The notes under the pieces are model-generated. The model was not told where the DNA came from and did not search any database. It was given only the letters and a program-made list of their open reading frames with translations. From positions 618,394 through 682,393 of the forward strand of contig JAIELV010000001.1 of the NCBI GenBank assembly GCA_019752595.1: 64,000 bases of DNA, in the 5' to 3' direction. How positions within the stretch are numbered: the stretch's first letter is position 1; every line of letters starts with the position of its first letter. The position numbers and the translations under genes were made by a program. Below, piece by piece: positions 8,533 to 26,401 of the stretch. This stretch comes from Patescibacteria group bacterium. GTDB lineage: Bacteria; Patescibacteriota; Minisyncoccia; Phycocordibacterales; Phycocordibacteraceae.

Positions 8533-9333
8533 CTATCGAGCAATCATTTCCTCTTCGAAGTCAGCAACTTTTGCCTCTAACTTCTCTACAACCCCTGCAA
8601 TAGTCAATTTCTTTTTTCCCTCACCTGACGCTTCAAACACCACCCGCCCTCGTTCAAGCATTATCAGCCTGTCGCCGTACTTAATTGCGTGATGGATGTT
8701 GTGAGTAATCATGAGTGTCGTTATGTTGTGTTTCCGCACCTCATTGTCAGTCATCCGTAATATTTGTTCAGAAACCCGCGGATCAAGTGCGGCGGTATGC
8801 TCGTCAAGCAATAACAGTTTTGGTTTAATCATGGTCGCCATCAGAAGCGCGACTGACTGCTTTTGCCCTCCTGAAAACAGACTCATCTCGGTTTCAAGTC
8901 TTTTTTCAAGCCCAATTCCGAGAGGCTTCAAAAGTGCCTCAAATTCTGGCCGCCATTCTTTCCGCACTCCTTTCCCTAAGCCTGCTCCGACAACGCGCGC
9001 CTTAGCCATTGCAAGATTTTCCGCAAGCGTCATTGAGGGAACAGTGCTCTCATTCGGATTCTGACGTACGCGAGACACATATGCAGCACGGACGTGCTCG
9101 TCTAAATGGTCAATGCGTGCACCATCAAGAATTATTTTCCCCGAAGTAAGTTCAAGGGAGCCCGCAATCGCATTAAATAGTGACGATTTTCCTGCGGCAT
9201 TTGAGCCGACAATAGTGACGAATTCCCCGCGCTTCAAAGAAAGCGACATATGGTCGAGTGCAGTCACCTCCCCCGCAGTAGCAGGGTTGTATATCTTATA
9301 TAAATTATCGAGTATTAAATATTCGTTTTCCAT
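8533..9333 (-). CDS. ABC transporter ATP-binding protein (COG1101-like)
   Basis: 266 aa with Walker A GSNAAGKSS, an ABC signature LFSGGQKQ and Walker B LLLLDEHTAALD. Confidence 0.88.
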   Translation of the reverse strand: MENEYLILDNLYKIYNPATAGEVTALDHMSLSLKRGEFVTIVGSNAAGKSSLFNAIAGSLELTSGKIILDGARIDHLDEHVRAAYVSRVRQNPNESTVPSMTLAENLAMAKARVVGAGLGKGVRKEWRPEFEALLKPLGIGLEKRLETEMSLFSGGQKQSVALLMATMIKPKLLLLDEHTAALDPRVSEQILRMTDNEVRKHNITTLMITHNIHHAIKYGDRLIMLERGRVVFEASGEGKKKLTIAGVVEKLEAKVADFEEEMIAR

Positions 9334-10189
9334 ATGTTATGTACCGCTCTCCGTCTTTCGCCATTATTGCGAAAATAACAATGAGCGCGGTAATTAGCTT
9401 CAAATCGGTTCCAGCAAGCCCCAACCGAAGCGCGATATTTACTATGAACTGATAGAGTACGGAACCGACAATTATCGCGAGCGTTACGGTGGCAATTTTT
9501 CGGGACGAAAGTATTGCTTCGCCGAGCATCAAGGCCGCGAGCCCGAGAATAATGTTACCAATACCCATGTTCACATCCGCAAAGCCCATGTATTGAGCAA
9601 ACAGCGCGCCCGCAAGCCCCATCAAGCCGTTACTTATAACAACACCTGCAAATTTCGTAACATTCGGATTGATGCCGAACGAACGCGCCGTTGCCTCATT
9701 GTCACCAGTTGCGCGCACCTGTAGTCCAAAACCTGTCGAGAGAAACCAATCAATAAAAAATTTTGCAAAGACAACAATAGCAAATAGGACTGCAATGAGT
9801 GCGACATGATTGAACGGCGCCTGCATAACGCCCATAACCGTTTCCTGATTTAGTAGCGAAAGATTGGGGCCATCCATCAGTCGAAGATTTATAGTATAGA
9901 GAATGCCGAGCGCAAGGATGCCCGAAAGAATCTTCTCTATACCCAAGACTGTGTGCAGAAATGCCGTCAGAACGCCCGCGCAAAGCCCTGCCACAAGCCC
10001 GACAAGAAGCGCCGTTTCACCGGGCACTCCGCTCTGTATCGCGAGAGCCGCGGCGGCGGCTCCGGTTACGAAACTTCCATCTACAGAAAGATCGGGGTAA
10101 TTGAGAACTCGAAACGTGAGAAAAACCCCAAGCACAATGAGCCCAGTTAAAAGCCCGAGCTCAAGGGAGATGAAAACTAAATCAACCAT
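9305..10189 (-). CDS. ABC transporter permease (COG4120-like)
   Basis: 294 aa and polytopic. It overlaps the downstream ATPase gene in the usual operonic way. Confidence 0.8.
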   Translation of the reverse strand: MVDLVFISLELGLLTGLIVLGVFLTFRVLNYPDLSVDGSFVTGAAAAALAIQSGVPGETALLVGLVAGLCAGVLTAFLHTVLGIEKILSGILALGILYTINLRLMDGPNLSLLNQETVMGVMQAPFNHVALIAVLFAIVVFAKFFIDWFLSTGFGLQVRATGDNEATARSFGINPNVTKFAGVVISNGLMGLAGALFAQYMGFADVNMGIGNIILGLAALMLGEAILSSRKIATVTLAIIVGSVLYQFIVNIALRLGLAGTDLKLITALIVIFAIMAKDGERYITYGKRIFNTR

Positions 10190-13596: not shown

Positions 13597-15126
13597 ATGT
13601 CGACATTAACAGTAGTTCTTCTTCTCGCAGCGGCGGTTGTCGTCGGTATTGCTGCGGGATATTTTCTCCGCTGGCTAGTAGCCCTTGGACAGAAAGGCTC
13701 GGCCGAGATTCAAGTCAAACAGAAACTTTTAGAAGCTCGTGAGCAGGCAAAAAACATTCTTGCTGAAGGCGAGAAACAAGCGGGACAGCTTGAGATTGCG
13801 CTTCGCGAAGAATTCCGCGTCAAAGAAGAAGCGCTTGTTGCGAAAGAAAAGCGCGTGGGCGAGAAAGAATCATACCTAGATAAACGCCAGCTTGACCTCG
13901 ACCGCGAGGCTGACCGTGTGAAAGGCCAGATTGAAGAAATAAAAAAGATAAAGGAGCGTGCTGATGCTTTGATTGTTGAGCGTGAAAAAGCGCTTGAAGC
14001 AGTTGCGCATCTTACGGAGGAAGAAGCAAAGGAGAAATTAGTGGACGCTGTTCGCCAGGAACACGAAGAAGACATTATGGTCCGTATCCAGAAGATGGAA
14101 CTTGAAGGCAAAGAACGCCTCGAGACGAAAGCCCGCGATATTCTAACAACCGCAATCCACCGCTTGGGTAATTCCGTACATGCGGACGTTCTGACTTCAA
14201 ACATCCCTCTACCGTCTGAAGAAATGAAAGGAAAGATTATCGGTCGTGAAGGAAGAAACATTCGTACATTCGAACGTGTAACTGGTGTTGACGTTCTTGT
14301 TGATGAAACCCCAGGCATGATTACGCTTTCCTGCTTCGATCCTGTGCGCAGGCAAATTGCAAGAATTGCTCTTGAGAACTTGATTATCGATCAGCGTATT
14401 CAGCCAGCGAAAATTGAAGACGCGGTCATCAAGGCACGCGACGAAATTGCGAAGGTTATGAAGGAAAAAGCAGATCAAGCAGCTTACGAAGTGGGCTTGC
14501 ACGGCTTCGACCCTCGCCTCATGGGAATTTTGGGCCGTCTCTATTTCCGCACCTCGTACGGTCAGAACGTACTTCAGCACTCAACTGAAATGGCGCACAT
14601 TGCAGGCATGATTGCAGCTGAATTAGGTGCTGATGTGAAAGTTGCAAAAGCGGGAGCGCTGTTCCATGACATTGGTAAAGCAGTCGATCATGCTGTACAA
14701 GGTACGCACGTTGAAATCGGACGCAGAATTTTGGAGAAGTTTGGTGCCGACAAACGCATCATTCAGGCAATGCAGGCTCACCATGAGGAATACCCGTACG
14801 AAACGATTGAGTCTTACATCGTGCAGGTTGCCGACGCTATTTCGGGTGGGCGCCCTGGTGCACGTCGTGATTCAGTAGAGAATTACATCAAGCGCCTAAC
14901 CGAGCTTGAGAACATTGCAACGTCATTTGCAGGTGTTGAAAAAGCATACGCCATTCAGGCAGGTCGCGAAGTTCGAATCTTCGTGAAGCCCGAAGAAATT
15001 TCAGACATGGCAGCGCGTGAATTGGCACGAAACATAGCTATGCGCGTTGAAAACGAAATGAAATACCCTGGCGAAGTGAAAATCAACGTCATCAGGGAAA
15101 GCAGGGCCGTGGAATTCGCCCGATAA
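13597..15126 (+). CDS. rny: Ribonuclease Y
   Basis: 509 aa with an N-terminal TM helix, a coiled coil, a KH domain and an HD domain (LFHDIGKAVDH). Confidence 0.93.
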   Translation: MSTLTVVLLLAAAVVVGIAAGYFLRWLVALGQKGSAEIQVKQKLLEAREQAKNILAEGEKQAGQLEIALREEFRVKEEALVAKEKRVGEKESYLDKRQLDLDREADRVKGQIEEIKKIKERADALIVEREKALEAVAHLTEEEAKEKLVDAVRQEHEEDIMVRIQKMELEGKERLETKARDILTTAIHRLGNSVHADVLTSNIPLPSEEMKGKIIGREGRNIRTFERVTGVDVLVDETPGMITLSCFDPVRRQIARIALENLIIDQRIQPAKIEDAVIKARDEIAKVMKEKADQAAYEVGLHGFDPRLMGILGRLYFRTSYGQNVLQHSTEMAHIAGMIAAELGADVKVAKAGALFHDIGKAVDHAVQGTHVEIGRRILEKFGADKRIIQAMQAHHEEYPYETIESYIVQVADAISGGRPGARRDSVENYIKRLTELENIATSFAGVEKAYAIQAGREVRIFVKPEEISDMAARELARNIAMRVENEMKYPGEVKINVIRESRAVEFAR

Positions 15127-15130
15127 TTTA

Positions 15131-15155
15131 AAACCCCCACAATTGCGGGGGTTTT
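15131..15155. terminator. Bidirectional intrinsic terminator
   Basis: aaaccccc-acaattgc-gggggtttt, with A and T runs on both sides. Confidence 0.7.
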
Positions 15156-15165
15156 ATGTGGAAGA

Positions 15166-15612
15166 TTATCCTTCTGCCCTAGCATGTGCTGGGTGTTTCC
15201 AAACATTTTGGGAAGTTCGGAAGCCTTCTCCGCATGGTCCGTACCCTACGTCCATATCTGGCCAGACAAACTCTTCCGTTTCAATCTTTTTGCCTTTATC
15301 GCCACCCTGACTGTGTCTGCGGTAAACGATTTGACCGTCTTTTCCAATACCGCGGTATGTAGCGTCGATGAGTTCCGCGGGCTCAGTCAAACAGTGAGAC
15401 CATGCGACCGCTATCTTATCTAGAATAACGCGATCCCCCCTGCTGATGCCGAGGGCCCCCATCAGAGCTCTCATCTCCTCAGGTCGTGGCCATGCTCTTT
15501 TATAGTCTGGATGTGCTGGGTGGCTCTTCTCTACTGCCATAAAATGATTATTTGATAGTAGTAGATACTCCTTTTTTGTCAAATTTTGACCCAAAAATGC
15601 ACTATTGCGCAA
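15166..15612 (-). CDS. Hypothetical protein
   Basis: 148-aa ORF, probably starting at the internal MAVEKSHPAH. No recognised family. Confidence 0.4.
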   Translation of the reverse strand: MRNSAFLGQNLTKKEYLLLSNNHFMAVEKSHPAHPDYKRAWPRPEEMRALMGALGISRGDRVILDKIAVAWSHCLTEPAELIDATYRGIGKDGQIVYRRHSQGGDKGKKIETEEFVWPDMDVGYGPCGEGFRTSQNVWKHPAHARAEG

Positions 15613-15678
15613 AAAACGGCTCTATATATACTGTTTCATACGGCATTACTTTAGCCATTATAAATAAAAAATATACAT

Positions 15679-15951
15679 ATGAACAAAGCAGACCTCTCCG
15701 ACAAAGTGCACTCGCTCCTCGGCGGCACAAAAACACAGGCTGAATCTGTGGTCGAAATGCTTATCGACACCATCACTGGTGCTTTGAAGAAAGGCGACGA
15801 AGTTTCTATCGCAGGATTGGGCATTTTCTCAACCAAAATGCGCCCAGCACGCACAGGTCGTAACCCAAGAACGGGTGAGTCTATCAAAGTTCCTTCTATG
15901 CGCGTTCCTAAGTTCCGCGCTGCAAAGGCCCTGAAGGACGCGGTAAAGTAA
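15679..15951 (+). CDS. hup: DNA-binding protein HU
   Basis: 90 aa with the HU/IHF fold signature GLGIFSTKMRPARTGRNPRTGESIKVP. Confidence 0.93.
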   Translation: MNKADLSDKVHSLLGGTKTQAESVVEMLIDTITGALKKGDEVSIAGLGIFSTKMRPARTGRNPRTGESIKVPSMRVPKFRAAKALKDAVK

Positions 15952-15980
15952 AAGCATTCCGCCTAATAGGGAAGCCTAAA

Positions 15981-16008
15981 ACCCGCTCACATCATGAGCG
16001 GGTTTTGC
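15981..16008 (+). terminator. Rho-independent terminator after hup
   Basis: cccgctca-catca-tgagcggg followed by tttt. Confidence 0.8.
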
Positions 16009-16110
16009 GTTTCCGCGAAGGCGAAAGCTTTTTCAGCTCTCCTCGGCTCGGGAATGAAAACTACAGGCTCTCATTCCCCTCGCCCTACGTCGGCTGTAGC
16101 CCATGTCTTC

Positions 16111-16143
16111 AAAAACACCCGCCTCAGGCGGGTGTTTTTTATT
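16111..16143. terminator. Bidirectional intrinsic terminator
   Basis: acacccgcc-tcag-ggcgggtgt, flanked by AAAAA and TTTTTT. Confidence 0.75.
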
Positions 16144-16144
16144 G

Positions 16145-16228
16145 GGAATCGGTCCTTACAGGACCAGTACGGGTTTCGCATTCACGTCGCTTTCGCTCGT
16201 TCATATGCTCAACCGCCTTCGATTCCCT
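16145..16228 (-). ncRNA. Conserved structured RNA-like element, copy A, embedded in a tRNA-Gly-derived pseudo-T-arm
   Basis: Outer stem GGGAATCG / CGATTCCC. Inner hairpin GGTCC-TTACA-GGACC. It shares a 62-nt core with copy B at 26525-26624 with only 5 substitutions, two of them compensatory. Strand is not established. Confidence 0.45.
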
Positions 16229-16273
16229 TACGCGAATGAAGCAGTTCATTCGCTATCCCGCGTACCAATATAT

Positions 16274-16306
16274 AAAAACAACCCACACGGAGTGGGTCAT
16301 TTTTAT
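16274..16306. terminator. Bidirectional intrinsic terminator between tRNA-Gly(UCC) and element A
   Basis: acccac-acgga-gtgggt, flanked by an A run and a T run. Confidence 0.55.
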
Positions 16307-16365
16307 ATATGTGCGACTTTGTTTTGTTGTCGGTACTCCGACTTAGAAAACAAGAAGTACTCGTG

Positions 16366-16439
16366 TGGTGCGGGATAAGGGAATCGAACCCTTGCCATCA
16401 GTTTGGAAAACTGATGTTCTACCATTAAACTAATCCCGC
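16366..16439 (-). tRNA. tRNA-Gly (anticodon UCC), CCA encoded
   Basis: Manual cloverleaf of 74 nt. Acceptor GCGGGAT / ATCCCGC, anticodon loop TTTCCAA, T-arm AAGGG-TTCGATT-CCCTT, and a 3' CCA. Confidence 0.85.
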
Positions 16440-16560
16440 CTTCGCCTCACTTCTGCTCGGCTTCGGCGGGCAGGCCCGCTTTGAGCAACAGAAGGTTCTG
16501 TGAACTTTAGCAAATGAAGCGTACTTTTGAAAGAAGTGCGGAGGCGGTATTCTGAAGCCT

Positions 16561-17727
16561 ATGCTCGCCTTGCTCCAAACCATCACTGTCGGAATTTTCG
16601 GATTCCTTGTCGCAGTCTTCAGTGTTTTTGGCTTGCATACTGAACAAGCAACGGCCCCGTCCGACAGAATGCCTGCGGTCATACAAGAGATACCAGAAGC
16701 GCCCGTCGAAACTACCGTCACAACCCCCGCCCCCGAAAAAGAAACACCTGTTGCAGAAAACCCAAAAACGGAGGCACCAAAACCTACGGTACCCTCGACA
16801 CCGAATTCCGAAACTGCTGTAGGCTCGACACTCATTCCGCAAACACCTACGGCCCCTCTTCCTGTGGCGCCGACGAATGCTCCTTCTGCAGTGAACGAAG
16901 CGGTTAGAAAAACGGTGGTGAATATTTTTTGTACGTCCATTTTTGGTGGACCGTTTGATGCAATTTCAGCGAGTGGTGTGATGATTGACCCTCGCGGAAT
17001 TATTCTCACGAACGCACACGTAGCGCAGTATTTCTTGCTCCGCGATTACCCAACACCAAACACCATGAGTTGCGTGATACGCACGGGCGCTCCTGCGATA
17101 CCGCAGTACACTGCAGAATTGATGTTCCTCCCGCCGAGTTGGATACAAAAAAATGCGCAAAAAATAAAAGACGAAAACCCCTTGGGCACGGGTGAGCATG
17201 ATTACGCATTGGTGCGCATTACAGGAACAATCAACAAACAAAACGCATTGCCGTCAGTGTTCCCCTACTCGCCCATTTCAACAGCGCTACCAAAGCTCGA
17301 CGACGACGTTCTGATTGTCGGGTACCCAGCAGGGTTTTTAGGCGGGATCGCGCTTCAACGTGATTTGTATCAGTCATCTGCATTTACTAAAGTGCGCGAA
17401 CTTTTAACATTTGTTGAAAGCACGTTGGATGTCTTTTCAATCGGCGGTTCCGTGGTTGCCCAATCAGGGTCTTCGGGTGGCTCCGCTTCTAACTTAGCAG
17501 GGGAACTCATTGGTCTCATTGTGACAACAACTGCAGGCGCAGACACTTCGTCGCGTGATTTACGCGCTATTACTACATCGTATATTTTAAGAGATTTTCA
17601 AAACGAAGCGGGGGTTGCGCTTGGTGTGTATCTTTCAGGAGATCCCGCGGAACGCGTTTCACTGTTCAGACAAACAAAAGAAGTTGACCTTATTAGAAGG
17701 TTAACTGACGCTATAGAGGCAGACTAA
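16561..17727 (+). CDS. Membrane-anchored trypsin-like (S1/S1C) serine peptidase
   Basis: 388 aa with an N-terminal TM helix and a Pro/Thr-rich linker. The catalytic triad context is His in TNAHV, Asp in DYALV and Ser in GSSGGS. Confidence 0.65.
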   Translation: MLALLQTITVGIFGFLVAVFSVFGLHTEQATAPSDRMPAVIQEIPEAPVETTVTTPAPEKETPVAENPKTEAPKPTVPSTPNSETAVGSTLIPQTPTAPLPVAPTNAPSAVNEAVRKTVVNIFCTSIFGGPFDAISASGVMIDPRGIILTNAHVAQYFLLRDYPTPNTMSCVIRTGAPAIPQYTAELMFLPPSWIQKNAQKIKDENPLGTGEHDYALVRITGTINKQNALPSVFPYSPISTALPKLDDDVLIVGYPAGFLGGIALQRDLYQSSAFTKVRELLTFVESTLDVFSIGGSVVAQSGSSGGSASNLAGELIGLIVTTTAGADTSSRDLRAITTSYILRDFQNEAGVALGVYLSGDPAERVSLFRQTKEVDLIRRLTDAIEAD

Positions 17728-17743
17728 TTTCAATTTTTTCAGG

Positions 17744-19021
17744 TTATTCGGAATCAGTATCCGCATCTTTTTCTTGTTGCACCCTTTCAGGAGGTGCAAG
17801 TTCACCAAGTTCCGATACAGGTTCCTGTATCTGCACAGGGATCGGTAACGTATTTTTAATAACAGCGTTCTCATTGAAGTCGCCACTAGCACCCTCGCGC
17901 GGTATGACTTTCAGTCGCGACTTCTGAAATGCCTTCAAAAAGACCGAGAGTTTCACGGAAATCGTAGCAGCTTTTCTGTATGAGGCGAGCGCAAGAGCAA
18001 AATCATTCTGAGACACTGCTTGATCGGCAGAAGACATAAGTGTTTTGATTTCAGAAAGTTCCCCATTCACGCGCATGCGTGCATCTTCATCAATTCTCTC
18101 TTCGAGGCGCTCAAACAGTCGCGATGCATTTTGAAATTCTTTTTTTGCAGAGCGTGCAAATCTTTGAACCACTTCTTCGCTCACGGTGGCTATTTGTACG
18201 GGAGGCGCTTCCTCAGCTACAGATGCTGCACGCGCTTTCATTGATGATCCTTCAGCCACCCCTGTGTCCATAGCGACAGACATCATCATGGTAGTAGCTT
18301 CAGGCGCTGGCTCGGAAAGTACAGCAACTGTGGCAGACGGTATGGGCACGCCACTCACCCGCTCAGTGACCCGCGCAAGACGGGCAATTTTTGTTCGTAC
18401 TTGATCTTTTAAGTTGCGAACTTTTTCAGGGTGCTCAACATCTGCGAGTACTACTTCGTGTGCCAAAAGTGTATTTTCAAAACGCGTGGCAACATCCGCA
18501 GCAATTGAAGCTTCTGAGGCTTCTAAGCGTTCCACATCAACTACAAAACGTTCAGCATGTTTTTCAAAACGATTTTCAAGCTCTTCCTTCGCTTCGTCGG
18601 TTAATGCATCATCCGAAGCAAGTTTTGCTGCTTCTTCCAAACGGCGCTCTGCCAATTCTGCGTTCCACAATGCTTTTGACTCGGACGAAACGGAAAGTAC
18701 TGCGACAACGGGTTCATTTACTTCTACCTTGATAGGGTAGAGCGCATCCCCTGGCAAAGCATTTTCCGCTGCAAAACTCACACCAGCACCCGAAAACAAA
18801 ATACCCGCCACCAGAAGGAGCGCAACTGATTTACGCGAAAACGCGTACAGTGACAAAAGCATGTACGAGATCGGCGCACGCCGATCCAAGGGCACGTTTC
18901 GAAGAGGCTTCATTGCGATATATTCAGAAAGCACACGTTTCATGCGCTCGCGCTCGATGTCTGAGAGAGACACATGCTCCCCGCTTTTTCGTATGTACTC
19001 TGTGAGGTTTATTTTTTTCAT
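17744..19021 (-). CDS. Putative anti-sigma factor, membrane protein with a DUF5667-like periplasmic domain
   Basis: 425 aa with one TM helix (VALLLVAGILFSGAGVSFA), a PGDALYPIK motif and long coiled-coil, acidic stretches. It overlaps the upstream ECF sigma gene by 4 nt (ATGA). Confidence 0.55.
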   Translation of the reverse strand: MKKINLTEYIRKSGEHVSLSDIERERMKRVLSEYIAMKPLRNVPLDRRAPISYMLLSLYAFSRKSVALLLVAGILFSGAGVSFAAENALPGDALYPIKVEVNEPVVAVLSVSSESKALWNAELAERRLEEAAKLASDDALTDEAKEELENRFEKHAERFVVDVERLEASEASIAADVATRFENTLLAHEVVLADVEHPEKVRNLKDQVRTKIARLARVTERVSGVPIPSATVAVLSEPAPEATTMMMSVAMDTGVAEGSSMKARAASVAEEAPPVQIATVSEEVVQRFARSAKKEFQNASRLFERLEERIDEDARMRVNGELSEIKTLMSSADQAVSQNDFALALASYRKAATISVKLSVFLKAFQKSRLKVIPREGASGDFNENAVIKNTLPIPVQIQEPVSELGELAPPERVQQEKDADTDSE

Positions 19022-19545
19022 GATGTTGCCAACTGGTCCTTAAGCTTTGCTACCCCCCGATGAATCCTGACTGAGACCGCGTTCTCTGTGGAGCCGGTCA
19101 TGCGAGCTATTTCTTTCGGGGAAAAGCCTTCCACGTACCTGAGAGTCACTACAGTTCTGTACTCCTCCGAAAGTTCCGTAATCGCATCTTTCACTTTATT
19201 CAGCAAATCTTTCTCATCCATACTTTCTTCAACTTCCAAAATACTGCCCTCTGCAAACATGGCTTCAGTGGCACTAGGATTATCTTCCAATTTTTTATCG
19301 AGAGATTCAGTCTTTGACCTTCGGTATTCGTCAATAATCAGGTTATTCAAAATTCTGAATAGGAATGATTTAGGACTTCTGACGTCCCCGCCACCACGCA
19401 CGTAGTCCCACGCTTTGATAAACGTGTCTTGCGTTAAGTCATAGGCTCTTTCGCGGTCAGGAAGACGGAAGAAAGCATGACGAAAAAGCGCATCTGCATG
19501 CGTGTTGTAAGCGGCCAGGAATTCCTCTTCCTTGTTCCCTTTCAT
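19018..19545 (-). CDS. ECF-type RNA polymerase sigma factor (sigma-70 family, regions 2 and 4)
   Basis: The ORF-track start at 19701 is unlikely. The start at MKGNKEEEFL (19545) gives a ~175-aa sigma-24-like protein with region 2 (DLTQDTFIKAWDY) and a region-4 HTH (PKEIARMTGSTENAVSVRIHRG). Confidence 0.75.
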   Translation of the reverse strand: MKGNKEEEFLAAYNTHADALFRHAFFRLPDRERAYDLTQDTFIKAWDYVRGGGDVRSPKSFLFRILNNLIIDEYRRSKTESLDKKLEDNPSATEAMFAEGSILEVEESMDEKDLLNKVKDAITELSEEYRTVVTLRYVEGFSPKEIARMTGSTENAVSVRIHRGVAKLKDQLATS

Positions 19546-19666
19546 AGGCCGTATATGTAGACGAGTATACCCCGCCTTTCTTTCTGTCTTCACACGAAAA
19601 AAATTCCTGCCCGCAAGACGGTGTAGCTGTACCCCCCCCGCAACACAAAAGAGTATCGTGGTATCG

Positions 19667-19682
19667 TGGTACCATGGTAACA
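19667..19682. promoter_or_regulatory. Palindrome TGGTACCATGGTAACA (copy b), abutting the -35 box of the yerC-like promoter
   Basis: Shares the ACCATGGTAACA core with copy a at 8479-8494. It is preceded by the tandem GTATCGTG GTATCGTG. Confidence 0.4.
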
Positions 19683-19684
19683 TG

Positions 19685-19713
19685 TTGACACGTAGAACCA
19701 TGTGCGATATAAT
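19685..19713 (+). promoter_or_regulatory. Consensus sigma70 promoter TTGACA-N17-TATAAT for the TrpR-like gene
   Basis: TTGACA at 19685-19690 and TATAAT at 19708-19713. Confidence 0.6.
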
Positions 19714-19719
19714 GAACGG

Positions 19720-20025
19720 GTGAAGAATAAAGTAAAAACCGACACCGAGCTGAACCGAAAGCGCATGGAGCGCCTGTATGATGCTCTGCTTTCACTTAAA
19801 ACCCGCGAAGAATCTGCTGCATTTTTGCGTGACTTGTGCACTGTCTCGGAACTTGAAGCACTTTCAGAGCGTTTGGCAATTGCTGAACGCGTGTCGAAAG
19901 ACGAATCGTATCTTTCTATTGCAAGCGATTTAGGAGCATCAACAACTACTGTTACTCGCGTAGCGCATTGGCTGAACCATGGAATGGGCGGCTACCGCGC
20001 GGTTTTAAATCGTTTGAAAAAATAA
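19720..20025 (+). CDS. TrpR-like protein, YerC/YecD family
   Basis: Aligns with Bacillus YerC across LYDALLSL...LRDLCTVSELEALSERLAIA...ASTTTVTRV. The GTG at 19720 lies 6 nt after the -10 box. Alternative starts are 19702 (ORF track) and the ATG at 19765. Confidence 0.7.
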   Translation: MKNKVKTDTELNRKRMERLYDALLSLKTREESAAFLRDLCTVSELEALSERLAIAERVSKDESYLSIASDLGASTTTVTRVAHWLNHGMGGYRAVLNRLKK

Positions 20026-20049
20026 TTTCAAAAGAACTCCGTTGCACCA

Positions 20050-20075
20050 GCCGCCCCGACTCGGGCGGTTTTTTA
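20050..20075 (+). terminator. Rho-independent terminator
   Basis: ccgccc-cgactc-gggcgg followed by tttttt. Confidence 0.7.
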
Positions 20076-20305
20076 GTATCAAAAATAATCAAAACATATG
20101 AGCGAAGCAAAAAGAATATTGGCAGCATCAAGAAAAGTTTTCATCGCGCGGCAAGAAGAGCGCGCGTTTAGCGATAGATCGGAAGACGTGCGCGCGTGTG
20201 AGCCAGAACCGACCTTAGAGATTGCTAAGTCATTTCGACCGAAAACGATACCCAGCATGTACGAAACAGCTCGAATAGCAATGGACGAGAGGGTGGGGGG
20301 CACTG

Positions 20306-21517
20306 TTGAAAAAATCTCCAAGTTCCGAACGTACGATTAATCACACTATGTCACTAGAACGATTCATATACCAGCAGAAACCAGTTCGTCCTGAGAACCT
20401 GACCGCGACACTTACCGCGGTGGGTGCACGAACTTCAAAAGAGGACACCGATTTTATAGCGGAAAGACAGAATCCATACCGTCAAAAACGAGGCGGGTTG
20501 AGTTTCGGCGCGTACGCTTCAATCCGCATCCCCGCTGGAAAGACGGAAATGACGAATATAAATGTCTACGGGGAGCAATCTCAACTTTCTTCGCTTTCGC
20601 TTTCCGTCACCGATCGTGAGAAAGGTACGTTTGAGCTGAGAGACGACTCGCTAGGAACACTGACAACGGGGCGCATATTAGAAAGCCCGAACTGGGCGAA
20701 AGAGCGCCTTACAAGCGGCCGCGGGGCAATGCAGGTCTTGCAACGTCACGGACCAGCAAACCTCGTCGGGGTGTTAGGTGAAGGACGTTGCTCGCTTTTC
20801 GACAAAGGTAACGCTTGTACATTCTGTACGATGAGCGGAGGTGCAGCGAACGCAGACCGAGAGGTGGAAGAGCTAGCAGAAGCACTCGAGGTCGCACGCA
20901 CAACAGACCGCCGAGCATACAACCTGACGGTCACTACTGGTCTTCAATCCTCTCTTGAAGGTGCGAACGGACTCATTGAAAAAACAAAAGCTCTGAAAAA
21001 GACTGTCGGAGATACAGATATTGCTCTTGTAGTAGCGCCGTTTCAGGAAAATTCACGCGATCGGCTCACTGCGCTTAAGGATGCGGGGGTAGGTACTTTG
21101 ATGATGCCTCTTGATATCGCAAGCGAGGCGGCGCAAAAGACATATGTCCCTGGCAAGGCACCGCTTCTTGGCGCAACCTACTGGCGAAACATGAAAGAAG
21201 CTGCACGCATATTCGGAAAGGGCGGAGTCGCGTCAAGTATTATCGTCGGGCTCGAACCCGTTTCGGAGACCGAAAGGGCAATAGAGCGCATGGTTGATTA
21301 CGGAATTGTCCCAGAACCGATACCCGTCAGATGGGATGATTCAATTTGTTCGAATGAACCCTTACCAGTCACAAACCCAGATGATTTAGTCGCTATGCGT
21401 GCGAAAGCGGCCGATGCGCTCGGAAGAAGGCGTGATGAATTCGGAAAAGTAAAAGCAGGCTGTTCTGCCTGTGGAGGATGCGGTGGGTTCAAAGCAAACG
21501 ACGTACTCTCGGGATAA
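20306..21517 (+). CDS. Putative Fe-S / radical-SAM-like enzyme with a non-canonical CX8CX2C motif
   Basis: 403 aa. The motif CSLFDKGNACTFC precedes TIM-barrel-like segments, and a second Cys cluster CSACGGCGG sits near the C-terminus. An overlapping upstream ORF at 20098..20340 is in another frame. Confidence 0.4.
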   Translation: MKKSPSSERTINHTMSLERFIYQQKPVRPENLTATLTAVGARTSKEDTDFIAERQNPYRQKRGGLSFGAYASIRIPAGKTEMTNINVYGEQSQLSSLSLSVTDREKGTFELRDDSLGTLTTGRILESPNWAKERLTSGRGAMQVLQRHGPANLVGVLGEGRCSLFDKGNACTFCTMSGGAANADREVEELAEALEVARTTDRRAYNLTVTTGLQSSLEGANGLIEKTKALKKTVGDTDIALVVAPFQENSRDRLTALKDAGVGTLMMPLDIASEAAQKTYVPGKAPLLGATYWRNMKEAARIFGKGGVASSIIVGLEPVSETERAIERMVDYGIVPEPIPVRWDDSICSNEPLPVTNPDDLVAMRAKAADALGRRRDEFGKVKAGCSACGGCGGFKANDVLSG

Positions 21518-21521
21518 AAAT

Positions 21522-23051
21522 CTACTCGTACTCAATTGTCGCAGGGGGTTTCTGGGTGATATCAAAAAAGACACGGTTCACTCCTTTCACTTCGTTCACG
21601 ATTCGGCTTGAAATCCTCTCCAGTAAATCGGTGGGGATTTTGTGCCAATCGGCCGTCATGCCGTCGACCGAATCAACAGCTCGAAGAGCAATTGCGTAAT
21701 CATACGTGCGGGCATCGCCCATCACGCCGACAGTCTTAATCGGAAGAAGTGCGGCGAACGCCTGCCAGATTTTTTCGTACTCCCCTGCTGATTTCAGCTC
21801 TTCCTGATAAATCGCATCGGCTTCGCGCAGAATTTTCAATCGGTCTTCGGTTACTTCGCCTACAATGCGAATACCAAGCCCTGGCCCTGGGAAAGGGTGG
21901 CGCCACACCATATCGTGCGGAATACCTAAACCTTCGCCCACGCGGCGCACTTCGTCTTTATACAAATCGCGGAGTGGCTCAATGACACCAAGCTTCATCT
22001 TTTCAGGCAACGTAAGGTTATGATGACTTTTTATTTTATCCGCATGTTTCCCTACTGCAGCCGATTCGATGCGGTCAGGATAAATTGTTCCTTGTGCAAG
22101 ATATTTCACAGGAAACTTTTGCAACTCCTCACCGAGGGCTTTCTCAAACACTTCCACAAACGCGTGCCCAATGATTTTGCGTTTCTCTTCGGGGTCAGTA
22201 ACGCCCTTGAGATTAGCGAGAAACATCTGCGAGGCGTCGATTACGTGAAGCCCTGTAAAGCCGCGCGACTTCAAAGACGCAGAAACGCTTTCTACTTCCC
22301 CTTTACGCAAAAGGCCGTGGTCCACGAACACCGCATGAAGCTGATCGCCAATTGCTTGATGGAGGAGCGTTGCGGCGACGAGTGAATCCACGCCTCCCGA
22401 AATACCAACCACCACATGGTCTGTACCGATTTTTTCTTTCAGGTCGGAAATTATGCCTGCCGAAACATCGCTCATGTTCCAGTTTTTCTCCGCTATTACG
22501 ATATCGAATACGAAGTTCGAAAGAATGTTTGTGCCGTGCACGGTATGTGTGACTTCAGGATGGAACTGAATCCCGTAGAAGCCTCGCTTCTCGTCAGCGA
22601 ATCCTGAAAGTTCACAGCTTTTTGACGAAGCGGTTTTTACAAATCCAGTCGGGAGTTTTGTTGCCTGATCGCCGTGCGAAAACCACACCACTTCTTTTGA
22701 TTCCAGCGTATTAAAAAGCGCATCTTTTTTGAGAATGTCTAGATTTTCTTTCCCGTACTCTTTTACGTAACCACCCTTCACTTCGCCCCCCAACATGTGC
22801 GCCATGAGCTGAAGGCCGTAGCAAATACCAAGAACGGGAACACCAAGTTCGAAAATACCTTTGTCAGGCAGCGGGCCGTTTTCAAGAACAGAGTGACCAG
22901 AACCTGAAAGAATAATTCCTTTCGGGTTCAATGCCTGTATTTCAGAAAGCGACGCATCACCATGCAAAATCTCGGCCTTTACGCCGAGGTCGCGCACTCT
23001 TCGTGCAATAAGGTGAGCAAATTGCCCGCCGAAGTTGAGAACTACAATCAT
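21522..23051 (-). CDS. guaA: GMP synthase (glutamine-hydrolysing)
   Basis: 509 aa with a class-I glutamine amidotransferase domain (catalytic Cys in GICYG), a PP-loop SGGVDS and a C-terminal dimerisation domain. Confidence 0.95.
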   Translation of the reverse strand: MIVVLNFGGQFAHLIARRVRDLGVKAEILHGDASLSEIQALNPKGIILSGSGHSVLENGPLPDKGIFELGVPVLGICYGLQLMAHMLGGEVKGGYVKEYGKENLDILKKDALFNTLESKEVVWFSHGDQATKLPTGFVKTASSKSCELSGFADEKRGFYGIQFHPEVTHTVHGTNILSNFVFDIVIAEKNWNMSDVSAGIISDLKEKIGTDHVVVGISGGVDSLVAATLLHQAIGDQLHAVFVDHGLLRKGEVESVSASLKSRGFTGLHVIDASQMFLANLKGVTDPEEKRKIIGHAFVEVFEKALGEELQKFPVKYLAQGTIYPDRIESAAVGKHADKIKSHHNLTLPEKMKLGVIEPLRDLYKDEVRRVGEGLGIPHDMVWRHPFPGPGLGIRIVGEVTEDRLKILREADAIYQEELKSAGEYEKIWQAFAALLPIKTVGVMGDARTYDYAIALRAVDSVDGMTADWHKIPTDLLERISSRIVNEVKGVNRVFFDITQKPPATIEYE

Positions 23052-23102
23052 GCTTGAGTATATCCTTGGAGCGGGAGTTTTACAAATTTACCCCTCGACG
23101 AA

Positions 23103-23339
23103 CTAGTGTGTTCTGGGATTTTGTTCTTGTATATCTTCACTATCATTTAGATCCGCTTCCCTTTTATATTTCAGGTAGTCCCGCTCCCATTGCGGTATTT
23201 CGTGGGGCATTCTTTTATATTCGTCGCCGTCATCCCAACCTCCTTCGGCGCGTACAAATGGAACTCTAGTTAGAGGCCGGCCAAAAGACTTTTCTACGTG
23301 AGTGTGGTCCATACCGACATCATACCAAAAACCCGCCAT
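23103..23339 (-). CDS. Hypothetical small protein
   Basis: 78 aa, charged, with no known domain. Confidence 0.3.
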   Translation of the reverse strand: MAGFWYDVGMDHTHVEKSFGRPLTRVPFVRAEGGWDDGDEYKRMPHEIPQWERDYLKYKREADLNDSEDIQEQNPRTH

Positions 23340-23354
23340 GAAGGCGAGTAAGTA

Positions 23355-23831
23355 TTACCGTTGCAATCTTTCTATTTCGCTTTTGTATCGCGCCATTTGC
23401 TCCTCTGAGAAAGGTAAGTCCGTATCCAAAGAATCCCTAAGTCCCACTGCCTCAATGACGGCATAACTCTGACTCATCCTTCCTGTTGCCATCCTAGCTG
23501 TGGCACGATGATTGAAACGCCAAAAGGCATCCGAATTTAAATCAAAAGTCAGCCCCGAACTTCTTGCTTTGTCAGCTCGCTTATAAGCAACCTGTCTCGC
23601 CTTGTCTGCAATGCGTGCCCATTTCTGAGTCTCACTGACAGCTTCAACTCCGCGCGCGACAACTCTCGTTACTCGGCTAGGCAAATGACCCCACGAAGTT
23701 TCGTCTTGTAAGGCAGCAGCGGCTTCCGCGAAGAACTGAGGGGTTCTTTTATCGTCATCAACGTGCAACCTTAAAGCAAGTTCATGTTTCAACATATAAC
23801 GCATTATAAACCTTAATTTAGGAAAAGTCAA
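23355..23831 (-). CDS. Hypothetical protein
   Basis: 158 aa with no recognised domain. Confidence 0.4.
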   Translation of the reverse strand: MTFPKLRFIMRYMLKHELALRLHVDDDKRTPQFFAEAAAALQDETSWGHLPSRVTRVVARGVEAVSETQKWARIADKARQVAYKRADKARSSGLTFDLNSDAFWRFNHRATARMATGRMSQSYAVIEAVGLRDSLDTDLPFSEEQMARYKSEIERLQR

Positions 23832-23891
23832 GCCCGCCGTCTCGCTCTACGAGATAGCTATATATTGAAAAACCCGCCATAGGGTGCGGGT

Positions 23892-24122: not shown

Positions 24123-24129
24123 ATTTAAT

Positions 24130-25491: not shown

Positions 25492-25519
25492 TACTAGTAT
25501 TTTATCACATCTACAGAAA

Positions 25520-25542
25520 TGTGCTATACTTAGTATAGCACA
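25520..25542. promoter_or_regulatory. 23-bp perfect palindrome TGTGCTATACTTAGTATAGCACA (copy 1), two face-to-face extended -10 boxes
   Basis: TGCTATACT is a TGn-TATACT element on both strands. Divergent purB and tRNA-Pro flank it. Confidence 0.5.
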
Positions 25543-26397: not shown

Positions 26398-26401
26398 TGT
26401 G

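Follow-up and report, generated by a model that had tools for sequence, protein, structure and literature searches.

What is the short conserved sequence that lies beside two different tRNA genes in this DNA? The original prediction was that a structured element of about 62 nt is present twice in the window (the whole stretch of 64,000 nt that was analyzed), once next to tRNA-Gly(UCC) (copy A) and once next to tRNA-Arg (copy B), and that it is a functional RNA or a structured recombination site rather than neutral junk. We found that copies A and B belong to a large Patescibacteria-wide family that we call tRNA-3'-end palindromic elements. The core (62-64 nt) is the branched tip of a hairpin of ~100-160 nt, and the arms of the hairpin are from the 3' end of the upstream tRNA. 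The view that this is a conserved, covarying structure and not junk was upheld by the fold, by covariation, and by the finding of 138 copies. Functional RNA and structured recombination site are both still the live options.

Structure of the two copies in the window

All of the pieces that had been described are present on the minus strand, including a second core beside tRNA-Arg(UCG). This is the strand of the two tRNA genes and it is the strand that carries the structure. The features at copy A are as follows (R1 and R2 are models described in the next section).

16366-16439, minus: tRNA-Gly(UCC), with CCA encoded (ARAGORN; Rfam tRNA, 77 bits)
16366-16388, minus: TTCGATTCCCTTATCCCGCACCA, the 3' part of tRNA-Gly(UCC) and the source of the arm sequence of copy A
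16268-16365, minus: spacer, ending in a palindrome of A-run, hairpin, and T-run (sequence)
16255-16267, minus: outer 5' arm, TGGTACGCGGGAT (read from the sequence)
16231-16254, minus: hairpin H0, a 9-bp stem with loop CUGC (MFE fold)
16218-16230, minus: inner 5' arm, TAAGGGAATCGAA (sequence and fold; aligns with positions 1-10 of R2)
16220-16227, minus: 5' strand of P1, GGGAATCG
16151-16214, minus: core, a three-way junction (fold; R1, 97 bits; R2, 51.1 bits)
16144-16151, minus: 3' arm, CGATTCCC, which is the 3' strand of P1
16111-16140, minus: hairpin resembling an intrinsic terminator, 3' of copy A (terminator scan; comparison with loci L001 and L171)

The arms of copy A match tRNA-Gly(UCC) over 13 + 7 nt antisense and 8 nt sense. 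Apart from 2 extra nt, the outer 5' arm is antisense to ATCCCGC-ACCA, which comprises the acceptor 3' strand, the discriminator, and CCA; the inner 5' arm is the reverse complement of TTCGATTCCCTTA in the same tRNA. H0 interrupts the 5' arm where its acceptor part meets its T-stem part. The 3' arm is a sense copy of the T-loop and the T-stem 3' strand; it is truncated, that is, the acceptor part is absent, and the same truncation is found in L171. Copy A is bracketed by terminators, based on the terminator scan and the sequence. The palindrome at 16268-16310 in the spacer looks like a two-way intrinsic terminator. The scan reported a terminator-like site (16281-16297) on the plus strand only, and the minus-strand reading was made by eye.

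The features at copy B are as follows.

26654-26726, minus: tRNA-Arg(UCG), the partner of copy B (ARAGORN; Rfam)
26627-26650, minus: spacer, with a terminator-like hairpin (CAGACC GAAG GTCTG) followed by TTTTGTT (terminator scan)
26612-26626, minus: 5' arm, GCGGAGGGATTCGAA (sequence)
26546-26609, minus: core (fold; R1; R2, 59.2 bits)
26525-26545, minus: 3' arm, GAATCCCTCCGGGAGCACAAA (sequence; location of the exact repeat)

The T-run of the copy B spacer directly adjoins the 5' arm, which is the reverse complement of TTCGAATCCCTCCG(G) in tRNA-Arg. The 3' arm (21 nt) is identical to 26651-26671, which covers the tRNA-Arg 3' end and 4 nt of its trailer. The match of these arms to tRNA-Arg(UCG) is 14 nt antisense and 21 nt sense. 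We found no sigma-70-like promoter in front of copy A or copy B.

Copies A and B fold far better than shuffled sequences (z = -4.3 to -6.7; 0 of 200 shuffles reached the same stability), and a 35-nt degenerate pattern matched these two copies alone in the window, with 0 matches expected by chance (100 shuffles). In copy A, P2 consists of GGUU/AACC, a tandem GA, GCAU/AUGC, an AUGA/GA loop, ACG/CGU, and GC-GAAA-GC; J2/3 is CGUACU, and P3 is GGUCC(U)-GUA-(A)GGACC. We compared the two 64-nt cores and found that they differ at six positions, one more than the five substitutions first counted. Two of the six are a G-C to C-G swap in P3 (5-6 bp), the compensatory pair that had been recognized in this hairpin. 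Two others are a C-G to U-A swap in P2b, and these account for the further purine/pyrimidine pair that had been seen to covary. The fifth difference is in a loop that is GAAA in copy A and GUAA in copy B (GNRA in both), and the sixth is at the base of P2a, where there is a C.C in copy A and an A-U pair in copy B. The loop of the P3 hairpin had been given as TTACA. This is right as a spelling of the plus strand, but on the strand that folds the loop is UGUAA. The flanking stem covaries as well (A-U vs U-A), following the T-loop of each neighboring tRNA.

The arms had been interpreted differently. The sequence GCGGGAT, within the outer 5' arm of copy A (16255-16267), had been taken for the 5' strand of the tRNA acceptor stem. 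It is better read as the reverse complement of the 3' acceptor strand, because the nucleotides before it are TGGT(AC), antisense to ACCA, and the true leader of the tRNA reads ...CGAAG instead. In addition, the core had been described as inserted in a tRNA-derived pseudo-T-arm. We found that the stem around the core duplicates the T-loop, the T-stem 3' strand, and the acceptor 3' strand of the tRNA in inverted form, with the antisense copy first and the sense copy second. Ordinary insertion in a T-loop was rejected, as the 5' arm is antisense and is not the 5' strand of a T-stem. Since the 3' arm exactly repeats the tRNA 3' end in many loci, the unit looks like a target-matched palindromic element and not like a degenerate tRNA.

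A family of elements at tRNA 3' ends in Patescibacteria

Four degenerate patterns for the exact core had no match in species genomes, JGI metagenomes, or viral contigs, and a three-copy model (R1) found the three known copies and no further ones. Thus, this core sequence is a local variant that is confined to close relatives. The family was detected via the arms alone, and then via the motif formed by J2/3 and P3. The arms-only pattern identified 61 metagenome loci. The pattern for the core type of copies A and B (type i) identified at least 120 stretches in species genomes, nearly all from Patescibacteria among the matches listed. From 27 copies, with those in the window excluded, we built a covariance model (R2) of P1, P2a, P2b, and P3. 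On the minus strand of the window R2 recognized copy A (E about 1e-12) and copy B (E about 5e-15, over 26539-26621); on the plus strand it gave E about 1-3. Among the matches listed, R2 found 138 copies (A, B, and 136 others) in 100 short loci. The search for more copies adjacent to tRNA genes, proposed along with the original prediction, was therefore productive, and the copies in the loci examined covary strongly.

We found no match to a known family. An Rfam E-value scan of the window from 15000 to 28000 reported four tRNAs only, and no non-tRNA family matched copy A or copy B. The best other overlap with copy A was rsmX (25 bits vs a threshold of 56). On 20 further loci (types i, ii, and iii), Rfam reported tRNAs and sub-threshold noise, with no family at E = 1-5, and the Rfam models for tRNA, tmRNA, and mascRNA gave no score on the element. 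We found no description of the element in the literature searched. The prediction that the core matches no known family holds for the entire class; the 62-nt sequence itself is one local variant within a phylum-wide family.

Most of the elements follow a tRNA gene. Among the matches listed, 85 of 123 elements (~70%) had a tRNA on the same strand ending no more than 150 nt upstream, with a median gap of 66 nt and 25 anticodon types represented. A terminator-like hairpin was present between the tRNA and the element in 45 of these 85 cases, and no recognizable one was found in the other 40. The unit has a constant order on one strand: tRNA, short spacer (often an intrinsic terminator), 5' arm, three-way-junction core, and 3' arm. 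Units are about 100-230 nt and most carry no gene; the inserts of copies A and B and of the loci examined are 98-230 nt and have no ORF.

The arms follow the upstream tRNA. The 5' arm is antisense to the T-loop and the 3' strand of the T-stem; in ~40% of copies it is also antisense to the acceptor 3' strand. An anti-acceptor segment was found upstream of P1 in 46 of 116 elements, compared to 12 in the shuffled control (among the matches listed). The 5' arms of copy A, L011, and L025 include sequence antisense to CCA, the discriminator, or the trailer, and the 5' arm of L038 has a C opposite G69, where the 5' strand of tRNA-Tyr has a U. On the basis of these sequences, the 5' arm is antisense to the tRNA 3' end and was not copied from the tRNA 5' strand. 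P1 is a long stem of 8-13 bp or more, perfectly paired. The 3' arm is tRNA sequence from the T-loop to position 73/74, and in copy B, L001, and many other loci it is an exact repeat of the tRNA 3' end up to that position. Among the matches listed, identity of the 3' arm to the upstream tRNA from CGAWT onward peaked at 19-21 nt, and in 31 of 80 cases it stopped 0 to +2 nt past the end of the tRNA. Hairpins equivalent to H0, with covarying stems, are in the same place in L011, L018, L032, L048, and L171.

The family core has a long P2 arm, an invariant J2/3 (GUACU), and a 6-bp P3 with a GUA triloop. The strongly conserved single-stranded motifs are GAA, GUACU, and the GUA triloop, and the core contains a k-turn-like UGA/GA motif. 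Other core types have the loops UUCG and CUUG.

The structure has been kept by compensatory change. In the R2 copies among the matches listed, 93.2% of cells paired, compared to 67.7% in shuffles, and 738 cells had changed on both sides, compared to 219 in shuffles. Compensatory change was found at 24 of 26 pairs. The observed value was reached by 0 of 500 shuffles. The structure is retained at about 50% sequence identity, in nearly every old, diverged copy. The pairing is biased toward the sense strand: among the matches listed, there were 107 G.T pairs and 62 A.C pairs, the sense fold was more stable than the antisense fold in 88 of 105 copies, and a recurrent G.U in P2a was found 21 times, compared to one A.C. 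G.U pairs made up 3.1% of cells in these copies, and P3 was nearly free of them (3 of 525). Core identity was 0.53 within a locus and 0.51 between loci among the matches listed. That is, the cores did not cluster by genome, and there is no sign of recent bursts.

We compared related genomes for gain and loss of elements. Copy A of the window has an ortholog in L171, which differs from it at 2 of 64 nt; the genomes are about 83% identical. Copy A is absent from the syntenic relative L001, which is equally distant. L001 also lacks the copy A spacer, and its tRNA-Gly abuts the same terminator that follows copy A in the window. In L001, tRNA-Arg and the spacer that comes after this tRNA in the window are separated by an additional inserted copy. 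In the near-relative contigs L006-L008 the sequence ends no more than 94 nt upstream of the gene for the CCA enzyme, short of the element. Elements are also found in tandem arrays of 2-4 units. Identical tandem units are present in L032 (173 nt, twice), L176, L020, L044, and L061. L038 has near-identical cores with different arms, and L001, L048, and L105 have unrelated core types, with the common arm design, in series.

We looked for genes associated with the elements by clustering the ORFs around the 61 and at least 120 loci described above. No recombinase, transposase, or reverse transcriptase was consistently nearby. The recurrent neighbors are housekeeping families kept by synteny (ComF-like, PilM, TadA, CCA enzyme, BipA, RbfA, and ClpB), and near the window loci there is a single tyrosine recombinase, a Xer-like gene also conserved in relatives without elements. 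In viral contigs the family pattern had two matches and no true copy; the two matches are attributed to chance because they are within coding sequence and their P3 cannot pair. A phage or plasmid origin was rejected, as there was no real viral copy. Defense islands are present at some of these tRNAs, with Shedu (L105), a reverse transcriptase (L122), PDC-S23/RhuM-Fic (L009), and a methylase (L022). We found no integrase in the cargo-bearing cases. In L081 and L122 the genes between the tRNA and the hairpin carry their own separate partial tRNA repeat, so these islands were not counted as cargo of the hairpin element and may be unrelated to it. A reading of the units as cargo cassettes was dropped on the same grounds.

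Comparison with known elements

Integron attC sites have R'' and R' boxes (RYYYAAC/GTTRRRY) at the base of a hairpin, and are accompanied by an integrase and attI or, in the CALIN type, are found as arrays of an ORF and attC. attC as single-stranded DNA has been discussed (PMC5737381). The elements described here share several properties with attC and with the forked-hairpin attP of CTX phage: an imperfect palindrome of about 60-140 nt in which structure is more conserved than sequence, folding of one specific strand, a stem that restores the recombination site as a duplex, one arm with an extrahelical element, a tip that is variable or branched, and tandem arrays of a short segment plus a hairpin. 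Single-strand integration of the CTX type would leave the order antisense arm, loop, and sense arm fused to host target at one end of the insert. In contrast to attC, the base of the stem is GGGAWTCGAA / TTCGAWTCCC and has no R'' or R' box (GTTCGAA is unlike GTTRRRY, by inspection of A, B, and the consensus). There is no integron integrase, attI, or dif-like site nearby, and most units have no ORF. In addition, the stem is the 3' end of the neighboring tRNA and changes with that tRNA, and the tip is a three-way junction of conserved sequence rather than a loop that varies freely.

Short repeats of several families also offer comparisons: REP and REPIN with RAYT, ERIC, BOX, Correia, RPE, and the PATEs derived from IS200/IS605. 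REP and REPIN sequences are dispersed extragenic copies with a conserved GTAG head, and the RAYT gene, which encodes a Y1 HUH transposase, is single copy. Like these, the tRNA-associated elements are short, non-coding, multi-copy intergenic hairpin repeats kept by compensatory change. They are present or absent among relatives, are often near terminators, can persist vertically for a long time, and would presumably be moved in trans by a single-copy enzyme. However, the miniature families have fixed terminal sequences and no particular neighboring gene, whereas the arms described here are from the adjacent tRNA and the copies are tied to tRNA 3' ends instead of being dispersed. Copies within a genome are as diverged as copies from different genomes. 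MITEs have family-specific terminal inverted repeats and a short direct duplication of the target site. Here, the inverted repeats follow the neighboring tRNA (L038), and the flanking direct repeat is 19-21 nt of tRNA 3' end and not a 2-10-bp duplication.

As in the att sites of islands and prophages that target tRNA genes, a direct repeat from the tRNA T-loop to the 3' end bounds the insert (21 nt for copy B), and the insert brings a replacement 3' end or terminator such that the tRNA stays functional. The elements differ in being 115-230 nt rather than several kb, in having no integrase gene in the insert, in the additional inverted copy of the target, in the folded core that covaries, and in their absence from viral contigs. 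The 5' arm is also like the primer binding site of retroviruses and LTR retrotransposons, which pairs with the same part of a tRNA: the arm is complementary to a specific tRNA over its final ~18-25 nt, T-loop to 3' end. In contrast to such a site, it is interrupted by H0 and is sequestered by a sense copy, and neither LTRs nor an associated reverse transcriptase were found. The only reverse transcriptase seen is that of L122, part of a separate island.

Several RNAs resemble or are built on tRNA, including the tRNA-like domain of tmRNA, YrlA, mascRNA, and the t-elements of plant mitochondria. Dicistrons of tRNA and snoRNA in plants have also been cited (PMC12045711). Like these RNAs, the element has an acceptor-like helix on a T-stem-like helix, is adjacent to a tRNA, and ends at tRNA processing positions. 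However, tRNA mimics keep the T-loop, and the element has a junction of 60 nt in its place; its NCCA region is often base-paired. TIGR-Tas systems have ~36-nt dual-spacer arrays or box C/D stem-loop units beside a Tas protein with a Nop domain (PMC12045711). As described there, they differ from the elements, which have units of about 100-230 nt, a three-way junction, and no Nop- or Tas-like gene among the annotated neighbors.

Four other candidates were dropped by inspection. A group II intron domain 5 lacks support from pairing of an AGC triad, which is absent. Against a retron msr/msd are the small size of the element and the lack of a reverse transcriptase next to it, and a split or permuted tRNA is inconsistent with the complete upstream tRNA. 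The hammerhead ribozyme has the catalytic core CUGANGA ... GAAA ... UH. With GAAR, GUACU, and no strand joining P3 to P1, the junction of the element does not fit this core, and no Rfam ribozyme model matched.

Possible functions of the elements

We tentatively favor, at somewhat less than an even chance, the notion that the A/B unit serves a non-autonomous element, one targeting tRNA 3' ends, as its folded, cis-acting module. A small site-specific element would insert at the 3' ends of tRNA genes, and the unit would fold as a single strand of tRNA-sense polarity (DNA or RNA), presenting a duplex copy of its own target. The three-way junction would cap this duplex and could be a handle for a putative trans-acting protein. 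The terminator in the spacer would keep expression of the tRNA gene correct. The elements would then have originated by mobility, perhaps through recombination of a single strand, and the logic of the module would resemble that of integron attC sites or the folded attP of CTX phage. In favor of this reading are the anatomy of the unit, the match of its arms to the tRNA, the size and tRNA linkage of the family, the covariation, the sense-strand bias, the terminator-like hairpins before many elements, and the lack of a sigma-70-like promoter before copies A and B. Signs of insertion and turnover also speak for it: copies gained or lost among relatives, identical tandem units, near-identical cores with different arms (L038), and unrelated core types in series that share one arm design.

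Some properties of the family argue against a mobile module. No recombinase, transposase, or reverse transcriptase is consistently nearby, viral contigs contain no true copy, and the cores give no sign of recent bursts. The genes between tRNA and hairpin in L081 and L122 come with a partial tRNA repeat of their own and may be unrelated islands. The structure is kept in old copies and the ortholog of copy A differs at only two positions, which argues for selection on each resident copy, unlike what is expected for a purely selfish relic. About half of the elements are without a recognizable terminator, making it plausible that they are co-transcribed with the tRNA. In addition, we know of no mechanism that would reset both arms to a new tRNA. 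As a separate observation that also runs counter to a mobile module, the loops are of types typical of RNA (GNRA in copies A and B, and UUCG and CUUG in the other core types).

As the main rival, it is possible, although we think it not especially probable, that the element is a cis-acting RNA in the 3' trailer of the tRNA primary transcript and controls maturation, quality control, or decay of that tRNA. After read-through, or where there is no terminator, the antisense arm would pair with either the 3' half of the tRNA or the downstream sense copy, and the choice would be set by the three-way junction, perhaps with a protein or ligand bound to it. Such a role would fit the location on the same strand shortly after the tRNA, the specificity of the arms for the adjacent tRNA, and the frequent lack of a recognizable terminator before the element. 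It would also fit the sense bias in G.U pairs and fold stability, the recurrent G.U in P2a, the GNRA loops and tandem G.A motifs typical of RNA, the retention of structure in each old copy, and the high conservation of the ortholog. However, about half of the elements do follow a canonical terminator, and the T-run can abut the arm, as in copy B. Arrays of 2-4 units and mixed core types in series are awkward for a regulator of a single tRNA, G.U pairs are rare (particularly in P3), and the element is missing in close relatives in which the tRNA has no visible change.

A more elaborate idea, which we consider unlikely, is that the unit is a programmable, target-matched module in which the junction recruits a putative protein and the arms are a re-settable double guide templated from the target. 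One arm would be complementary to each strand of the tRNA gene 3' end, or to a tRNA 3' fragment. If true, such a double guide would represent either a novel mode of insertion at tRNA genes, directed by guides, or a means of sensing or repairing cognate tRNA 3' ends. In both cases it would be confined to the Patescibacteria, which are reduced and host-dependent.

The Patescibacteria form a very large radiation of bacteria; their genomes are tiny, and few mobile elements are known from them. If the reading as a folded module of a tRNA-targeting element holds, a previously uncatalogued structured element would lie behind many of their tRNA genes. The stem is rewritten for each neighboring tRNA and the branched tip is conserved, making this a covariation-supported candidate for a new family of RNA or single-stranded DNA, suitable for curation in the style of Rfam. 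It also raises the mechanistic question of how an inverted copy of the target is made and kept. The answer could reveal a new way of recognizing tRNA genes or tRNA 3' ends by base pairing.

It is quite doubtful that the element is a stand-alone, trans-acting small RNA on a tRNA-like scaffold, with an acceptor-like helix, H0 replacing the body of the tRNA, and the junction replacing the loop of the T-stem. The ends of such an RNA would be made by tRNA-processing enzymes and the core would be the functional part, for example by binding a protein through the k-turn-like UGA/GA motif. The topology is indeed tRNA-like, in that H0 takes the position of the D and anticodon arms and the 3' arm stops at 73/74; terminators bracket copy A, and the GAA, GUACU, and GUA triloop motifs are conserved as single strands. 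Nonetheless, no promoter-like site was found before copy A or copy B. Pairing of the 5' arm extends to the discriminator and CCA in many copies and would block RNase P, the CCA-adding enzyme, and aminoacyl-tRNA synthetases. The acceptor-like helix is present in about 40% of copies only, and copy A is without the 3' acceptor strand. Moreover, this reading gives no reason for a scaffold to copy the neighboring tRNA.

We consider it very improbable that the elements are inert scars, that is, functionless attR remnants of integrase-driven islands once integrated in these tRNA genes. Direct repeats of a tRNA 3' end are the classic mark of integration in a tRNA gene, and defense islands are present at these tRNAs (L105, L122, L009, and L022). 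However, this reading is largely refuted by covariation (compensatory change at nearly all pairs, and structure kept at about half identity); to our knowledge, double-stranded protein-binding sites do not evolve through compensatory base-pair changes. There is also no integrase nearby and no viral copy, and the islands in L081 and L122 have separate partial tRNA repeats. Equally improbable is a riboswitch or self-cleaving ribozyme with a P1 built by chance from tRNA sequence: the compact three-way junction closed by P1 and the conserved junction nucleotides would suit one, but the window copies and 20 further loci matched no Rfam family at E = 1-5, the downstream genes are inconsistent and unrelated housekeeping genes, hammerhead core residues are missing by inspection, and P1 is long and perfect, unlike a switching helix.

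The elements matter for annotation and assembly as well. The repeats break contigs at tRNA genes and mimic partial tRNAs.

Two copies behind tRNA genes

We found that the structured element described beside tRNA-Gly(UCC) (copy A) and tRNA-Arg(UCG) (copy B) is present at both places. Its pieces in the window were located as follows.

Positions and strand of the two copies
16366-16439, minus strand: tRNA-Gly(UCC), partner of copy A
spacer of copy A, 98 nt, minus strand, ending in an A-run/hairpin/T-run palindrome at 16268-16310
16255-16267, minus strand: TGGTACGCGGGAT, after the spacer and before hairpin H0
16231-16254, minus strand: hairpin H0 of copy A, 9 bp
16218-16230, minus strand: TAAGGGAATCGAA of copy A
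16151-16214, minus strand: core of copy A, 64 nt
16144-16151, minus strand: CGATTCCC of copy A
16111-16140, minus strand: terminator after copy A
26546-26609, minus strand: core of copy B, behind tRNA-Arg(UCG)

A 35-nt degenerate pattern had exactly two sites, cores A and B, with none expected by chance. Both copies have the same three-way junction fold (z-scores -4.3 to -6.7). Between the cores, 6 of 64 positions differ, and not 5 as originally counted. Two of the differences lie in hairpin P3 and together make the compensatory swap already described (G-C to C-G); the loop of this hairpin, given before as TTACA, reads UGUAA on the folding strand. Two more make a C-G to U-A swap in core helix P2b, the further co-varying pair that had been noticed. 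One is in a loop (GAAA to GUAA, both GNRA) and one is at the base of helix P2a. In copy B, the T-run of a terminator-like hairpin abuts the arm. A scan of both window copies found no sigma-70-like promoter upstream of either.

The enclosing stem (P1) had been described as a tRNA-derived T-arm with an insertion. Its 5' strand is instead the exact reverse complement of the T-loop and T-stem 3' strand of the neighbouring tRNA (TTCGATTCCCTTA reverse-complemented is TAAGGGAATCGAA in copy A; TTCGAATCCCTCCGC reverse-complemented is GCGGAGGGATTCGAA in copy B), and its 3' strand repeats that segment in the sense orientation. The sense copy in copy B is 21 nt long and also takes in the acceptor strand, discriminator and 4 trailer nt (26525-26545 repeats 26651-26671). 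The GCGGGAT upstream of H0 in copy A, taken before for the acceptor 5' strand, follows TGGT(AC), the antisense of ACCA, whereas the true tRNA leader has another sequence; it is the antisense copy, extended into the acceptor strand. Since the arms carry antisense and sense copies of the tRNA 3' end, the unit is, judged from its sequence, an inverted duplication of that end around the core.

Between the terminator of copy A and an HU-like gene is a stem-loop (16050-16078; GGGAATGA ... CUGUAG ... TCATTCCC) that may be a decayed further copy. The family model R2 (see below) gave a weak, P1-only match there (E about 1.5). Plus-strand ORFs of 71-113 aa in a mechanical ORF list cross both elements (15994-16378 and 26490-26737). 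Because of the paired compensatory substitutions and the multi-locus repeat, these ORFs are almost certainly spurious, and they could mislead gene callers.

Gain, loss and rearrangement among relatives

Among the housekeeping genes in the window are those for RNase Y, GuaA, PurB and the CCA-adding enzyme; this last enzyme has a 100% identical counterpart in a Patescibacteria group bacterium, encoded on an 831-kb contig. Three relatives, each with about 83% nucleotide identity, were informative. In one, locus L001, copy A is missing and tRNA-Gly directly joins the terminator that trails copy A in the window; L171, as distant as L001, has copy A, its core differing at only 2 positions. A third core copy is inserted at tRNA-Arg in L001; it separates the tRNA from the spacer that trails this tRNA in the window. 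At the copy B site, L001 has a different insert of ~110 nt between the same arms. The third core copy added covariation in P3 (GUUCC/GGAAC) and P2a (GGGUU/AACCC) and, in P2c, a G.U for which only the minus strand allows pairing. In more distant relatives (L002, L003 and L005), tRNA-Arg is inverted and the element is absent.

The ~130-nt segment at 16000-16110 of the window is also missing in L001. Among close syntenic relatives, tRNA-Arg(UCG) and tRNA-Pro(UGG) are inverted in place, with flanking protein genes in the same order and orientation. The window and L001 have tRNA-Arg on the minus strand, and L002, L003 and L005 have it on the plus strand; the plus strand carries tRNA-Pro in the window and L003, and the minus strand carries it in L001 and L002. 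The two tRNA sites are at 26654-26726 and 25594-25665 (window), 8601-8672 and 9881-9953 (L001), 4335-4406 and 5447-5519 (L002), and 8697-8768 and 9916-9988 (L003). Three short-read contigs from near relatives (L006, L007 and L008) end 2-94 nt upstream of the CCA-enzyme gene; tRNA-Arg in the window is about 40-110 nt upstream of that gene. These ends are consistent with assemblies broken by repeated tRNA 3' ends and cores. If so, MAGs may under-represent these elements.

A family of elements at tRNA 3' ends

Core-sequence patterns and a three-copy covariance model gave no matches beyond the close relatives. A pattern for the arms only, from copy B (GGAGGGATTCGAA, 50-80 nt, GAATCCCTCC), found 61 metagenome loci, nearly all just downstream of a same-strand tRNA and repeating its 3' end. 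Their cores fall into three or more unrelated kinds: type i, with a J2/3 strand of GUACUG and a GUA-triloop P3 in common with the window copies; type ii, matching the different insert of L001; and type iii, on contigs of 1.5-2 Mb.

Searched against one genome per species, a type-i pattern found at least 120 stretches, among the matches listed almost all in Patescibacteria (Saccharibacteria and the Paceibacteria groups Kaiser-, Taylor-, Nomura-, Zambryski- and Lloydbacteria). Also among the matches listed, a same-strand tRNA ended within 150 nt upstream of 85 of 123 elements (within 600 nt for 94), with a median gap of 66 nt and 25 anticodon types. Of 85 cases, 45 had a terminator-like hairpin between tRNA and element. 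Counted from CGAWT onward, the stretch of 3' arm identical to the upstream tRNA peaked in length at 19-21 nt and ended 0 to +2 nt past the tRNA end in 31 of 80 cases; only 5 of 80 tRNA genes encode CCA. An anti-acceptor segment preceded P1 in 46 of 116 elements, compared to 12 in a shuffled control.

R2 was built from 27 copies, with the window copies left out. In this seed 92.2% of cells pair, compared to 73.6% in shuffles (0 of 500 as high). R2 detected both window copies, with 59.2 bits for B and 51.1 bits for A, exclusively on the minus strand; it found no third copy in the window. The prospect of more tRNA-adjacent copies was borne out: over 100 sources R2 found 138. In their alignment, which is fitted to R2 and hence leans towards structure, 93.2% of cells pair (67.7% in shuffles), 738 cells changed on both sides (219 in shuffles) and 24 of 26 pairs have compensatory change; sliding partners by one column lowers pairing to about 53%. 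Counts anchored on fixed motifs, which are free of model-fitting bias, agree. By these, 519 of 525 P3 cells hold Watson-Crick pairs, four pair types occur at the central positions of P3, and the first five pairs of P2a all covary, with a recurrent G.U at one position (21 G.U, 1 A.C).

G.T outnumbers A.C (107 to 62), and in 88 of 105 copies the sense strand gives the more stable fold. Therefore, it is the tRNA-sense strand that folds. G.U pairs make up only 3.1% of cells. GNA triloops, stable in DNA, occur alongside GNRA, UUCG and CUUG loops, typical of RNA. Sequence alone cannot separate ssDNA motifs from RNA motifs (Weinberg et al. 2017, PMC5737381).

Some copies occur in series. L032 has two identical 173-nt tandem units, L020, L044, L061 and L176 have tandem pairs, and L101 and L117 have up to four copies within 8 kb. 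L038 has two near-identical tandem cores with different arms, one set matching tRNA-Tyr (GAATCTTTCC) and the other reading GAATCCCTCC. Types i and ii are in series in L001, L048 and L105. Cores did not cluster by genome or tRNA type (mean identity 0.53 within a locus, 0.51 between loci). The family is therefore old and diversified, and structure is retained in nearly every copy.

Type ii (L001 9600-9745, minus strand, at the position taken by copy B in the window; L010, L014, L018, L028, L043, L052, L058; L105 3670-3790) has GCCGGA-hairpin-GAGGC, then GGGGUCGCG-hairpin-UGUGACC, between the same kind of arms. Apparently a structured family in its own right, type ii merits a model of its own. 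Type iii (L020 771-1023, L044, L046, L047, L061 and L064, metagenome contigs, some of 1.5-2 Mb) lies behind tRNA-Ser genes, often as tandem pairs, and reads GGAGGGAUUCGAACCCUCGGUGC-GAAGCG-CUUG-CGCGAAG..., with an antisense copy covering the whole T-arm. Because these are apparently larger genomes, the arm architecture may extend beyond Patescibacteria. The few matches recorded outside that group include L083 (Patiriisocius sp.), L129 (Ruminococcaceae) and L128 (6634-6720, in a MAG labelled Nostocoides sp.). The L128 copy is a very strong type i (94 bits), which points to a Patescibacteria contig binned wrongly and away from real occurrence in Actinomycetota.

Possible insertion at tRNA ends, or a possible trailer RNA

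The element is phylum-wide, strand-specific and supported by covariation. Its junction is conserved, its arms copy the adjacent tRNA, and it shows arrays as well as gain and loss. As originally supposed, its core fits no known family: Rfam has none matching any core type, and we found no published description in the literature searched. The window element is real, undescribed as far as can be established, and a local member of a large new family. It is best filed among structured palindromic repeats and folded recombination sites, with a moderate chance of being something new in kind. The nearest precedent we found is an attC-like motif with a branched structure (PMC5737381).

Our tentative preference is for a small non-autonomous element with insertion at tRNA 3' ends, of which the unit would be the folded module acting in cis. 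As in attC or CTX attP, the module would present a duplex copy of its own target, capped by a junction that is a candidate for protein recognition. This reading explains together the tRNA-end direct repeat, the terminator-bearing spacer, the arrays, the different cores with one design and the polymorphism between relatives. It is weakened by the long retention of structure in every copy, the conservation of orthologs and the absence of a linked enzyme. These same three points favour the main rival, somewhat less probable, in which the 3' trailer of the tRNA contains a cis-acting RNA with an antisense arm that would pair either with the tRNA 3' half or with the decoy copy. A stand-alone tRNA-like sRNA is unlikely; inert integration scars, and equally a riboswitch or ribozyme, are very improbable.

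Recurrent neighbours of the elements are housekeeping genes kept by synteny, with no enriched recombinase, transposase or RT among them. The family pattern had only two chance matches in viral contigs. We know of no mechanism for resetting both arms to a new tRNA; this resetting is the most interesting point raised by the family.

At a few loci, small defence or accessory islands at the 3' ends of Patescibacteria tRNA genes lie between the tRNA and a hairpin with arms matching that tRNA: L105 561-2778 (Shedu SduA and an ankyrin protein), L122 5132-6139 (a 335-aa reverse transcriptase), L009 1540-2520 (PDC-S23/RhuM-Fic), L022 3922-4980 (N6/N4 methylase) and L081 2794-3657 (DUF6671). No integrase was found within the visible stretch of these five islands. 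Because the L081 and L122 islands carry their own partial tRNA repeat, the islands and the hairpin elements probably use one integration hot spot independently.
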